A stretch of DNA of 64,000 nucleotides from an uncultured Gammaproteobacteria bacterium (GCA_963844535.1 CAWJOP010000008.1:196801-260800); one strand, 5' to 3'; counted from the first letter of the stretch, positions 59,841 to 63,254 are shown. The notes: a model not told the origin generated them from the letters alone. Translations and numbers: made by a program.

Positions 59841-60428
59841 TTATTTTTTGGGGCACAGTGTTTTTAAAAAAATTAAAATCTTATTTTTATCAAAATCTTC
59901 GATAAATTTCTTATGATTTTCGTTGTATGAAGAAAGATTTTCTTCAATTTCAGAAACAAGGCTTTTGAGATGTTTTGTTTCATCGCGCATTATATCATCA
60001 AATATATTAGCCTTTTCTTTAAAGTAAGTATTTTTGCTATTTTCATAGCTTGCCTCATTTTCTAAAAATTTTTCTAGGTAAAAAGTATTAGTAAGTAATG
60101 CGTCAAAAAATCTCTTAGATAAGAGATAATGCCTAATTATGCTATTTCTATATAATTCATCATTAATAGCGCCAATAATATTTGAGTTAACCTCGTAAGT
60201 TGAAAAATAATTTGAGCTACTTTTTAAAAAATAATTATGGTTTTTAGCTTCGTTAGTGTTTTTTATACCATTTCGGATATCAGAGACTATTTTAAATAGC
60301 TCATTGGTTTCTTCATTTAGCGCTTTTAATGTGCACTTTATTTTTCGATTTTCTCTCTTAAAATTCCAATACAAAGTCACACATGCTCCAACAAGTCCGC
60401 CAATAACTGCACTTATCATCAATTCCAT
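59841..60428 (-). CDS. hypothetical single-pass membrane protein with a coiled-coil-rich cytoplasmic domain
   Basis: 195 aa. There is an N-terminal TM helix (MELMISAVIGGLVGACVTLYW), then a Lys/Glu/Asn-rich helical region. It is the last gene of a three-gene minus-strand cluster. Confidence 0.4.
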   Translation of the reverse strand: MELMISAVIGGLVGACVTLYWNFKRENRKIKCTLKALNEETNELFKIVSDIRNGIKNTNEAKNHNYFLKSSSNYFSTYEVNSNIIGAINDELYRNSIIRHYLLSKRFFDALLTNTFYLEKFLENEASYENSKNTYFKEKANIFDDIMRDETKHLKSLVSEIEENLSSYNENHKKFIEDFDKNKILIFLKTLCPKK

Positions 60429-60445
60429 TTAAGTTTTCCTAATGT

Positions 60446-60694
60446 CTAAGGTAATGAAAAATATTTCTTAAAAAGCTTTTCAGATTGCTCAATACCTTCC
60501 GGAGTCATCACTACGCTTTTGGCTTTTCCGACAGGATTACTAATAAAACCTTTTTCATATAATCGATTTAAACTATCCCAATCAAAACTCTTCCAGGCTC
60601 TCGTTTCAAATCTATCTGAGTGAAAAACTAAGTTCATTAATGCCAATACCATATCATCTACTTTATTTTCGTCATATTCCATAAAGTACCTCAT
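60446..60694 (-). CDS. hypothetical small protein
   Basis: 82 aa (MRYFMEYDENKVDDMVLALMNLVFHSD..). It sits tightly between the NTase-like gene and the membrane-protein gene, with 18-nt gaps. Confidence 0.4.
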   Translation of the reverse strand: MRYFMEYDENKVDDMVLALMNLVFHSDRFETRAWKSFDWDSLNRLYEKGFISNPVGKAKSVVMTPEGIEQSEKLFKKYFSLP

Positions 60695-60712
60695 TATAGT
60701 GGATTCTTACAT

Positions 60713-61573
60713 TTAAGCAGTAAAACTAGCGATTTTTTCTCCGCAAAGTTTTTCGCATAAACTTTTTAAGTGATTTATCTGCTTGACTAATTTACTCAGT
60801 TCTCCTTCCGTGATGACATAACCAGGTTTATAGCGCGCATCAACATAGGCGTTTCTGAGTAGTTTGAATAAGCGTTTATTTTCAGCGTTATCTAGGGGGA
60901 AAACCATTGCCAATTCAGCGTCAATTGTATTAGCAAATTTCCGTAGAACAAGTAGATCATGTGATTTTGGCTTATAACGAGTAAACACTAATAAAATCGC
61001 AGTGTATAAGCGCTCAGTGACTTGATGAAGCTCAAAAGCAGCTTCATTGTAATAATGATGAGTAAAATAAAACTGAAATCCTTCTAAAATATTTTTTGCT
61101 TTATTAAACCAATAATCAAAGTCCTCTTGCGCTAGCTTTTGACGTGCTGCATTCGATAACTCTTTGGACTCGTTTAATTGAAAATTCTCTGAATTGAAAA
61201 GATAGATACCCTCTTTTTTAATATCTGAAAAGAAGTACTGCGCCTTGCTAAGTCGACGATTCACAAATTCAATATCGTGGAGAATAATTGAAATTGGTGT
61301 TTTAAGGCTTGACTCTTGGTCAAGTTTTTCCTCAATCGCTCGCTCTAATTTCCCTTGGGTAATTTCACTGCGAGTTTGCACTAACACTAAAATGTCAAAA
61401 TCACTTTGATAGCGATAATGCTCTTTATCGTATTTATCCTCAACCCAATCACCACGCGCATAGCTGCCAAATAAAATCACCATTTCTGGCTTGGCAATTT
61501 CGCAAATAATTTGTGCAATGGTTTTTAGCTCTTGCTGTTTGCGTTCAGGAAGATGGGCTATGTCCTGTTTCAT
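60713..61573 (-). CDS. pol-beta superfamily nucleotidyltransferase fused to a C-terminal HEPN-like/KNTase-C-like helical domain
   Basis: 286 aa. The N-terminal part has MVILFGSYARGDWVEDKYDKEHYRYQSDFDILVLV (hGS x9-13 DhDh). The C-terminal ~130 aa are helical, with a conserved-looking RNAYVDARYK. Confidence 0.6.
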   Translation of the reverse strand: MKQDIAHLPERKQQELKTIAQIICEIAKPEMVILFGSYARGDWVEDKYDKEHYRYQSDFDILVLVQTRSEITQGKLERAIEEKLDQESSLKTPISIILHDIEFVNRRLSKAQYFFSDIKKEGIYLFNSENFQLNESKELSNAARQKLAQEDFDYWFNKAKNILEGFQFYFTHHYYNEAAFELHQVTERLYTAILLVFTRYKPKSHDLLVLRKFANTIDAELAMVFPLDNAENKRLFKLLRNAYVDARYKPGYVITEGELSKLVKQINHLKSLCEKLCGEKIASFTA

Positions 61574-61730
61574 TGGAGTTCCGTTATATTTTGGAAGATT
61601 GTTAGCATTGTATTTTCTGTATTTTTATTGGGTAGTATGTTGTTGGCGATAATAAAGAATTACCCGCGTTTTGTCCACGGAGCCACATCCCAAAAAGACG
61701 CGGCGAGGTGGGGAAAGGATGGGTAATTCT
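61525..61730. repeat. repeat F, copy 2, covering the start and upstream region of the NTase-like gene
   Basis: See 52905..53100. Palindromes AAGAATTACCC..GGGTAATTCTT and CCGCGTTTT..AAAAGACGCGG lie within the putative 5' UTR. Confidence 0.55.
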
Positions 61731-61748
61731 TTAAGACGATTGAGCAAT

Positions 61749-63254
61749 TTATGTTTTCTCTAAAGAGTTTTTAAAATTTGAAAAGGTTTCACTCAAAAAA
61801 TCGACTTTATAAATTTTATTATCATCTAAATTTAAAATGGCTTGGTATAAGTCTTTATTCTTATCTCTGCATTCTTGACAAGCTACTTCAAAATCAAGGC
61901 AACCTAGTATGTGAAAATCAGTAATTGATGCTTTCATATATTCCAATATTGCTTTCCTTGCGTACTGATTAATTGCAAACATCTCATCGAGATATACGAG
62001 AATGCTAATAATTTTTTGATCTTTAAATTCAATACCGTTTAAAACATTATTTTTAATATGCTCTTTTTTATTTTCCAATTTATCTAATTCTTCTGCTATG
62101 CTTTCAATAAGCGTTTTTATGCCACTATTTTCGCCATTCATTCCCGCTTTTGAATAATTATCAAGTTTCCTTTTTTTACATTCTATTTGAAATATATATT
62201 TATCAGATACAAGCAACCAATCTGCACTTTTTATTCTATTTTTTCCGATTGTGTACTCAATTTCTTTAAACAATTTTGAATTTGGCAACAATTCTGCATT
62301 ATAATATTTAAGCAGAGAACCAACATATTCTTCAAAAATCCCCCCTATTCCCATAAATAAGTTATTTTTTTGACTGTTATTTAACCTATCTATGAGCGCA
62401 TAGTACAACCCTTCAGAAAAAGAATATATGAAATCAGGTATCGAAGGAATAATATATTTTTCTTTCTCAATTTTTGAATTCGTCTTTAGTATAGGAAATC
62501 TTTTAAGCGGATTAAATTCATATTTTTTTAATAAAAAATCATCCACTTTAAACTCTTTAAATTTACTTTTAAATTCTTCTTGATTAGCCGAAAACAAATC
62601 CAAGAATTTATCTATTTTTTCAGAAGTTAATAATGATTTTAGGCAAGAAATAGAATTATCTGTAAGATTTTTTCTGTCAAAAAATTTATTTTGTGTTAAG
62701 GAGGCATAAATACAGAATCCTATTTTGAAAACATCCATTAGGTCTAATTTGATTGATTCATTTAATATCTTTGCTAACTCTGTGTTATTTTCTAAGAGAC
62801 TAGAAAATATAAAATAGTATCGCGCTATTATTGTAATAGGTATGCGCAAGTAAAAATGTTGTAAATTGATGATCCGCAGCGCCAACAACCAGCTATCTTT
62901 AGCTTTGGGATTAATAGTAGAAAGATCAGATTCTAAGCTTTCATAATGATGAGCTAGCTGTGATAAAGTAGCATCATCAAGCTTATTAGATGACCTTTTA
63001 CAGTTCAAAATCACTGTCTTTGCAATAAAAGAAACAGCATGTCTAGCTATTAAAATTTCATCTGTTATCTTAAAAGGGGATCCAGGAGGCGTGATCTCTA
63101 CAGGAATCTTTACATCAGTCTTATTGTTCATTAAAGCTGAAAAATCTTGTAGTTTCATTAGAGAACTAATGTAATCAAATCCGCTAACCATTTTTCTAAA
63201 CTTATTATAGTTAATAGATTCAGATGGAAAAGTAGAAGAGGTGATAATTTCCAT
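61749..63254 (-). CDS. hypothetical large protein with a C-terminal PD-(D/E)xK-like nuclease motif
   Basis: 501 aa. Its C-terminal region, GIGGIFEEYVGSLL.., SADWLLVSDKYIFQIECKKRKL, fits the E...D...(D/E)xK arrangement of the restriction-endonuclease fold. The N-terminal ~350 aa have no recognised motif. Confidence 0.45.
   Translation of the reverse strand: MEIITSSTFPSESINYNKFRKMVSGFDYISSLMKLQDFSALMNNKTDVKIPVEITPPGSPFKITDEILIARHAVSFIAKTVILNCKRSSNKLDDATLSQLAHHYESLESDLSTINPKAKDSWLLALRIINLQHFYLRIPITIIARYYFIFSSLLENNTELAKILNESIKLDLMDVFKIGFCIYASLTQNKFFDRKNLTDNSISCLKSLLTSEKIDKFLDLFSANQEEFKSKFKEFKVDDFLLKKYEFNPLKRFPILKTNSKIEKEKYIIPSIPDFIYSFSEGLYYALIDRLNNSQKNNLFMGIGGIFEEYVGSLLKYYNAELLPNSKLFKEIEYTIGKNRIKSADWLLVSDKYIFQIECKKRKLDNYSKAGMNGENSGIKTLIESIAEELDKLENKKEHIKNNVLNGIEFKDQKIISILVYLDEMFAINQYARKAILEYMKASITDFHILGCLDFEVACQECRDKNKDLYQAILNLDDNKIYKVDFLSETFSNFKNSLEKT

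Follow-up and report, generated by a model that had tools for sequence, protein, structure and literature searches.

A candidate divergent GAPS1-like nuclease gene and three neighbouring genes, probably independent cargo, at the integrase-proximal end of a gammaproteobacterial accessory island

GAPS1, which is encoded in the GMT islands of Vibrio parahaemolyticus, is a validated single-protein antiphage system in which residues D313 and K328 are essential, the T7 capsid protein acts as the trigger, and the outcome is dormancy (Mahata et al., bioRxiv 10.1101/2023.03.28.534373). VirD2-binding protein (VBP) of Agrobacterium tumefaciens combines an NT_KNTase-like domain with a HEPN domain, and its C-terminal HEPN domain has been solved as Protein Data Bank (PDB) entry 4NQF (Padavannil et al. 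2014, PMC3953389). VBP is a dimer that binds ATP, a relaxase and a coupling protein, properties that are known for VBP only. Here we describe four adjacent minus-strand genes, two of which encode proteins related to GAPS1 and VBP, in a 64,000-nucleotide (nt) stretch of DNA from an uncultured Gammaproteobacteria bacterium (GCA_963844535.1 CAWJOP010000008.1:196801-260800; hereafter ‘the window’). A first-pass annotation of this DNA had proposed that the three downstream genes form an uncharacterized defence module next to a nuclease gene. We consider it probable instead that the region forms that end of a low-GC, mosaic accessory island (approximately 43.6-64 kb) which lies nearest the integrase, and that the four genes in it are independent cargo and not one system. 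As judged from sequence, what is new would be a divergent clade of a known defence family of the GAPS1 kind, and the rest would be ordinary island cargo. The features concerned are as follows.

61749..63254, minus strand: gene for the 501-amino-acid (aa) GAPS1-like protein, with an N-terminal helical domain and a C-terminal PD-(D/E)xK nuclease domain; GC content 28.1%
61574..61748, minus strand: 175-nt spacer that separates the 501-aa gene from the next gene, with an ~85-nt hairpin and a promoter-like site
60713..61573, minus strand: gene for the 286-aa VBP-family protein (nucleotidyltransferase (NTase)-HEPN), identified by Pfam, family alignment, profile comparison with PDB 4NQF and BLASTP; GC content 36.4%
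60446..60694, minus strand: DUF6429 gene (82-aa open reading frame (ORF), identified by Pfam), with a likely start at 60682 that yields 78 aa; GC content 32.5%
59841..60428, minus strand: gene for the 195-aa protein, with an N-terminal transmembrane helix and a four-helix bundle, a member of a small uncurated family; GC content 27.2%

The four minus-strand ORFs lie where the first-pass annotation had placed them and encode 501, 286, 82 and 195 aa. All are genes and not chance ORFs, because database homologues exist for each.

The 501-aa protein matches the NCBIfam GapS1 model (NF047931) over residues 87-369 (E 3.7e-14), at a score of 52.4 bits that does not reach the curated cut-off of 320 bits. 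Among 34 aligned family members, 31 match the same model, with a best E of 6.7e-20 and all far under the cut-off; the family is therefore predicted to be a clade separate from curated GapS1, and its 501-aa representative appears to be a divergent GAPS1 homologue outside the curated family. The N-terminal 350 residues, previously described as novel, are not wholly so, since the aligned span covers most of them. The profile match ends shortly past the ExK motif and leaves the C-terminal ~130 residues uncovered.

The earlier recognition of a PD-(D/E)xK site toward the C-terminus was correct. The active-site set comprises E308, D345, E358 and K360 (E..D..ExK) in a restriction-endonuclease fold, and the alignment of 34 members shows D345, Q356, E358, C359, K360 and K361 to be invariant and E308 to be nearly so. 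GAPS1 and the 501-aa protein each consist of a single polypeptide of ~450-500 aa that is helical in its N-terminal part and carries the PD-(D/E)xK centre toward the C-terminus, and the spacing from catalytic D to K is 15 residues in each (D313/K328 in GAPS1, D345/K360 here). They also share a patchy distribution of the kind produced by horizontal gene transfer, and carriage on islands. The 501-aa clade differs from GAPS1 in that it is rare, scores 52 bits against a cut-off of 320, has a C-terminal region that the GapS1 match omits, and includes members from the candidate phyla radiation (CPR) that carry a tightly coupled upstream gene for a 323-aa protein.

Other searches with this protein returned little. 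Its sole Pfam match is a sub-threshold one to NERD, no PADLOC model matches it, and neither the protein nor its family profile gave anything useful against PDB sequences. The first-pass annotation had suggested kinship with Shedu-like DUF4263 proteins. This assignment was rejected because there is no sequence match to DUF4263 or to the PADLOC Shedu models; the likeness to Shedu SduA, as to Upx, HamA and Can2/Card1, exists at the level of the fold only. Relatives are scarce, with only 69 related clusters among 5.8 billion proteins, the nearest of which is 51% identical. Few of them have an organism name, and these are mostly metagenome-assembled genomes of CPR bacteria. A plasmid search by tblastn recovered only other relatives of ~500 aa that are equally distant and score ~70 bits to GapS1, scans of viral contigs for the family found nothing, and an identical protein is present on a 2.9-kb Logan contig.

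The neighbours of the 501-aa gene differ across the window and two comparison loci (L169 and L170), which together provide three independent contexts only. One relative lies near HigBA and an integrase, and another lies beside restriction-modification (R-M) genes in a Nealsonbacteria genome; no NTase-HEPN neighbour was seen for any relative. In Nealsonbacteria (L170 4021-6557; L171 935-3471), the 323-aa gene, which has no Pfam match, precedes the 501-aa homologue with an 8-nt gap, and the homologue adjoins a cluster of methylase, R.HinP1I and Vsr R-M genes. This pair of genes may represent a two-gene version of the family.

Homology to the experimentally validated GAPS1 makes a defence role for the 501-aa protein plausible, and its gene is plausibly the only strong phage-defence candidate among the four. 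We propose that the protein would function as a stand-alone GAPS1-like enzyme in which the N-terminal helical domain presumably senses a trigger, and in which a nuclease centre formed by D345, E358 and K360, once activated, would cut nucleic acid and thereby halt growth or phage replication. If it does defend against phage, GAPS1-type nuclease defence would widen to a rare and very divergent clade that spans CPR bacteria and a Legionella-like organism, about whose phages very little is known.

The 501-aa gene had been described as lying immediately upstream of the other three, but the 175-nt spacer intervenes. The predicted RNA fold of this spacer has an energy of -38.2 kcal/mol (z -4.3) and includes an ~85-nt hairpin with arms AAGAAUUACCC and GGGUAAUUCUU; a promoter-like site (61677-61649) and a terminator-like site (61681-61663) are also present. 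The hairpin is part of an element of ~210 nt that continues through an AT-rich leader into the NTase-HEPN ORF, of which it includes the first ~50 nt. This element is repeated at 52902-53110 and is kept upstream of the NTase-HEPN homologue at another locus (L001, about 7840-8000). Because spacer and ORF start are repeated and conserved together, the spacer belongs to the NTase-HEPN unit and separates the 501-aa gene from it. The repeated copy is decayed, adjoins a cyclase gene, and retains only a 20-codon ORF stub. A search with Rfam over 52-64 kb revealed no RNA family, and the element could be an operator, a 5′ untranslated region, or a recombination site. Given the hairpin and the promoter-like and terminator-like sites, the 501-aa gene might well constitute its own transcription unit.

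If the three downstream genes formed one new defence system, possibly together with the 501-aa nuclease, the nucleotidyltransferase would serve as sensor or signal generator and the membrane protein or nuclease as effector. Their arrangement is of the kind expected from such a system, since the genes share one strand and are tightly spaced in a variable island that also carries a DUF1016 gene (PADLOC candidate PDC-S02), DUF3800, DUF4760, an AbiEi fragment and an integrase. Moreover, the NTase domain weakly matches another PADLOC candidate, PDC-S09 (E 2e-8). The gaps of 18 nt reported previously are accurate for the first intergenic region as annotated, but the second measures 17 nt. Homologues of the 82-aa ORF begin at codon 5, and a GAGG Shine-Dalgarno sequence is located upstream of that ATG; therefore the DUF6429 start is probably at 60682, which extends the first gap to ~30 nt. 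No predicted terminator was found between the three genes.

Co-occurrence data argue against such a system. We examined 81 NTase-HEPN loci (L001, L002 and L088-L166) and 80 DUF6429 loci with 6-kb flanks, with neighbours identified from our own ORF calls and sequence clustering. Hidden Markov models (HMMs) of the DUF6429, 195-aa and 501-aa families match nothing in the 81 NTase-HEPN loci, and the 80 DUF6429 loci contain no homologue of NTase-HEPN or of the 195-aa protein. Neighbours vary for each gene family: the largest neighbour cluster is found at 5 of the 81 loci in the first sample and at 3 of the 80 in the second. Even where the NTase-HEPN gene is 81-87% identical (L001, L002 and L088), other, unrelated genes lie downstream. 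GC content also differs from gene to gene (27-36%), against a value of 38.5% for the core portion of the window; this heterogeneity and the duplicated gene stubs indicate a mosaic structure. In addition, the 501-aa gene is set apart by the spacer of the NTase-HEPN unit.

The sole other locus with the pair is a 2.6-kb metagenomic contig (L178) that has 77.5% nt identity to window positions 61052-60458. Identity extends across the NTase-HEPN gene's 3′ part and on through DUF6429, and ends ~12 nt before the DUF6429 stop codon. The 195-aa gene is absent and a DUF1016 gene comes next, from which we conclude that the membrane protein is dispensable where the other two genes are kept. The likeness of this contig to the window looks like shared descent of the locus and not like functional coupling.

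Several observations count against the view that the four genes are independent cargo headed by a GAPS1-like gene. The three downstream genes, on one strand and with gaps of 17-30 nt, may be co-expressed and could interact, and the NTase-HEPN/DUF6429 pair does recur in one close relative. Many comparison loci are short, such that only 47 of 81 extend 800 nt or more past the NTase-HEPN gene on its downstream side, and very divergent partners escape our method of detecting neighbours. Finally, the GapS1 score falls far under its cut-off, and the correspondence of D345/K360 to D313/K328 is one of spacing. Taking both sides together, we regard a single defence system as very unlikely, and retain the reading of independent cargo. 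Under this reading, the DUF6429 and membrane-protein genes would be solitary small genes that landed downstream of the NTase-HEPN gene and are probably co-transcribed with it by accretion only. A CBASS-like NTase-effector operon was considered as well and was rejected because there is no match to a cyclase-type NTase family and no conserved effector. Tight packing of genes, with 18-nt gaps in a defence-rich island, was not by itself a guide to a functional system in this case, and a test of co-occurrence was needed.

The assignment of the 286-aa protein as a pol-beta NTase with a C-terminal domain similar to HEPN or KNTase-C agrees with both its Pfam domains and its homology to VBP. Pfam places NTP_transf_2/Polbeta in the N-terminal half and HEPN (PF05168) in the C-terminal half. 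In BLASTP, the protein aligns over residues 1-284 with an A. fabrum pAt paralogue of VBP (WP_010974381.1; 34% identity, E 6e-53), which is itself 52% identical to the 4NQF chain, and the family profile matches 4NQF with an E of 1.8e-29, including the AYV(D/K)ARY segment. The 286-aa protein is thus a full-length homologue of VBP and a member of its family, alignable end to end and with the two domains in the same order. The family is well conserved and comprises at least 2,430 clusters, and the assignment provides a name and a solved domain structure for more than 2,400 clusters that had been called at most ‘HEPN domain-containing protein’. The first-pass annotation could not assign these genes to a named system; the placement of its NTase-HEPN protein in the VBP family is the kind of outcome that it had listed beforehand as counting against a defence module.

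The family alignment shows no variation at G36-S37 and D58-x-D60 (GS and DFD), and therefore the nucleotidyltransferase centre looks intact. The HEPN half lacks an Rx4-6H motif, as does VBP, and its invariant residues are instead A242, Y243, A246, R247 and Y248. R240 is not conserved, being R, K or C within the family and N in VBP, and the segment LLRNAYVDARY has D at the position expected for His, with no His following. By analogy with VBP and kanamycin nucleotidyltransferase, the protein would form a dimer through its HEPN domain and bind ATP between both domains, and its most likely function in this form is that of a nucleotidyltransferase or of an adaptor. The HEPN-fold domain would be non-catalytic, and the protein would not be an RNase toxin.

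A toxin of this kind is nevertheless worth weighing, since the fused type VII toxin-antitoxin (TA) protein FhepTA has a similar composition. In a protein of the FhepTA type, the MNT domain oligo-AMPylates and restrains the HEPN RNase, which is freed under stress or infection. The 286-aa protein has the same MNT-HEPN domain order as FhepTA (PMC13000451), with an N-terminal MNT-type NTase and a C-terminal HEPN fold, is the product of a solitary gene on mobile or variable DNA, and weakly matches the NCBIfam MntA model NF047752 (E 1.3e-4), although its score of 21.8 bits does not reach the cut-off of 60. FhepTA requires both an RphixxxH motif and an adjacent AMPylated Tyr (2026, PMC13000451). In contrast, the HEPN half of the 286-aa protein is of the PF05168/VBP type and not of the DUF86/HepT type, and it lacks both the RNase motif and an AMPylatable Tyr next to it. 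Because these residues are absent, a fused type VII TA was rejected for this protein, and we consider such a function highly improbable.

Another possibility is that the 286-aa protein acts as VBP does, as a dimeric cytoplasmic adaptor that brings a relaxase-DNA complex to a type IV coupling protein (T4CP), in the service of an integrative and conjugative element or mobilizable island. Its full-length homology to VBP paralogues fits this role, although identity to VBP is only 34%, and an integrase is encoded 2 kb away. Homologues of NTase-HEPN occur on 373 plasmids, mostly rhizobial and sphingomonad. At four of seven inspected plasmid loci, these four being alphaproteobacterial, the gene lies inside or no more than 5 kb from a relaxase or coupling-protein region (Sphingobium pSRL3, with the order traA-traD-traD-x-HEPN-vbhA-T4CP; Blastomonas; A. 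fabrum pAt; and Novosphingobium), but at the remaining three it is found among TA or R-M genes. Likewise, an 81%-identical homologue (L002) adjoins TrbI/CagX/VirB8/TrbL and CsrA genes.

For the copy in the window, a conjugation role like that of VBP cannot be asserted, because none of the window ORFs examined was found to encode a type IV secretion system (T4SS) protein or a relaxase; core metabolism accounts for positions 1-43 kb. With phmmer, T4SS and relaxase queries matched L002, which had itself supplied four of them, but nothing in the 79 metagenomic loci of the same clade (L088-L166). This gammaproteobacterial/Legionellales clade differs from VBP in that its genes are solitary and have variable neighbours. 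Scans of viral contigs for the NTase-HEPN family found nothing. On this evidence, an adaptor devoted to conjugation is unlikely, and the more general expectation of an ATP-binding nucleotidyltransferase or adaptor is preferred.

There is also a more speculative way to view these genes, to which we assign only a small chance. Within one Legionellales lineage, the NTase-HEPN gene and its hairpin element might head an exchangeable cassette site, with DUF6429 and variable genes before DUF1016, such that NTase-HEPN and DUF6429 would make up a two-gene conflict module that is specific to the lineage and can exchange its effectors. As a separate part of this view, the 501-aa family might function against phage, as a clade whose sensor domain differs from that of GAPS1 and which is common to CPR bacteria and a lineage of intracellular pathogens.

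The 82-aa protein was described previously simply as a small protein. The gene is real, and its product is a member of Pfam DUF6429 (E 1.9e-30; 104.8 bits against a gathering cut-off of 31.6). We collected 360 homologues, and at least 568 loci occur in species-representative genomes. A literature search for DUF6429 found no characterization, and comparison of the DUF6429 profile with the PDB found no solved relative. The conserved segment ‘RLxEKGFI...KAKSVxLTxEG’ resembles part of a winged helix, which might point to such a fold. Two DUF6429 genes are found on a Legionellales-like contig that also encodes a U-box protein (L179, 62-758 and 3615-4243). Both follow an HTH_3 (Xre-type) gene, and a ParE toxin gene lies upstream of one of them as well. 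This setting hints that DUF6429 genes tend to lie among TA genes, yet no conserved partner emerged from the 80 loci examined.

The 195-aa protein had been described as a single-pass membrane protein with a coiled coil. It is indeed membrane-anchored, but its soluble part is a four-helix bundle that continues from the N-terminal transmembrane helix and not a coiled coil. Of its two closest relatives, one is encoded beside purK and the other beside a response-regulator gene. None of the four proteins has a match in PHROGs. Two more small proteins with an N-terminal transmembrane segment, one of which is a DUF4760 protein, are encoded on the plus strand at 45518-46243 and 50259-50675; the family HMM indicates that neither is related to the 195-aa protein.

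Core functions, for example purL, an EPSP-synthase-family enzyme and the glycine cleavage system, occupy positions 1-43 kb, and the sequence from ~43.6 kb to the window end is a mosaic accessory region of low GC content. This island contains genes for an AadA-like NTase, DUF3800 (with two partial copies), a DUF4760 membrane protein, a PLD-like protein, a Cache-cyclase, an AbiEi fragment, an F-box protein, DUF1016, the four genes described above and the integrase. Its other features near the four genes, or related to them, are listed below.

58320..59348, plus strand: gene for a DUF1016/YhcG PD-(D/E)xK protein, identified by Pfam and PADLOC and convergent with the four-gene cluster
59629..59774, no strand assigned: DUF3800 3′-end remnant and GC-rich hairpin terminator, encoding ..IEGFGLIRWPKK and then a stop on the minus strand; duplicate of 44504-44649
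63613..64000, plus strand: N-terminal 129 codons of a tyrosine integrase (PHROG 1 integrase, E 1.9e-9), in a gene that continues past the window end
52902..53110, minus strand: decayed second copy of the NTase-HEPN upstream element and first ~20 codons (repeat D2, 88% identity by alignment; family HMM match at 52881-53003)

As the first-pass annotation had noted, a DUF1016 nuclease, DUF3800 remnants and an integrase are all present nearby, the last as an N-terminus only, and its view that the genes lie in a variable island, rich in defence genes and next to an integrase, is supported. Its placement of the island at a tRNA gene is not, since ARAGORN finds no tRNA in the whole window. The DUF1016 protein matches Pfam YhcG_C (1.7e-55) and DUF1016_N (1.8e-46) as well as PADLOC PDC-S02 (3.3e-143). 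The intact DUF3800 gene is located at 44602-45357, and its partial copies at 50048-50208 and 59629-59774 have 88% and 89% identity, respectively. The first derives from the interior of the gene; the second lies immediately downstream of the 195-aa gene and comprises the 3′ end together with the hairpin terminator (repeat D4, 89%). These two partial copies point to repeated insertion or deletion at DUF3800 genes.

At the three loci that are most closely related, namely the window (58320-61573), L178 (1-1762) and L088 (495-3218), NTase-HEPN and DUF1016/YhcG genes flank a variable slot. In the window this slot is occupied by the DUF6429 and 195-aa genes; in L178 it contains only DUF6429, and in L088 an unrelated gene for 255 aa. 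The orientation of the DUF1016 gene is convergent in the window but co-directional in L178 and L088.

Additional ORFs in the island were noted. A 575-aa protein encoded on the minus strand at 55555-57282 matches the F-box Pfam family (E 3.6e-4) and has weak, sub-threshold WD40/beta-propeller matches. Because such F-box proteins are eukaryote-like and typical of Legionellales effectors, this gene supports a Legionellales origin, and the window is probably part of a Legionellales chromosome. A 58-aa ORF on the minus strand (54950-55126) matches only the C-terminal part of AbiEi (Pfam AbiEi_1, E 5.5e-9) and has a 13-nt overlap with the start of a short ORF that comes next downstream (54765-54962). 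The 58-aa ORF resembles the remains of a decayed AbiE system. Lastly, the core part of the window carries three short repeat families (57-124 nt, 81-91% identity) at 18074-18406 and 33657-34251, approximately 15.6 kb apart. One of these families includes a GC-rich palindrome (CCCTCACCCTGGCCCTCTCCCAG...CTGGGAGAGGGG), and the repeats look like elements of the repetitive extragenic palindromic (REP) or miniature inverted-repeat transposable element (MITE) type.

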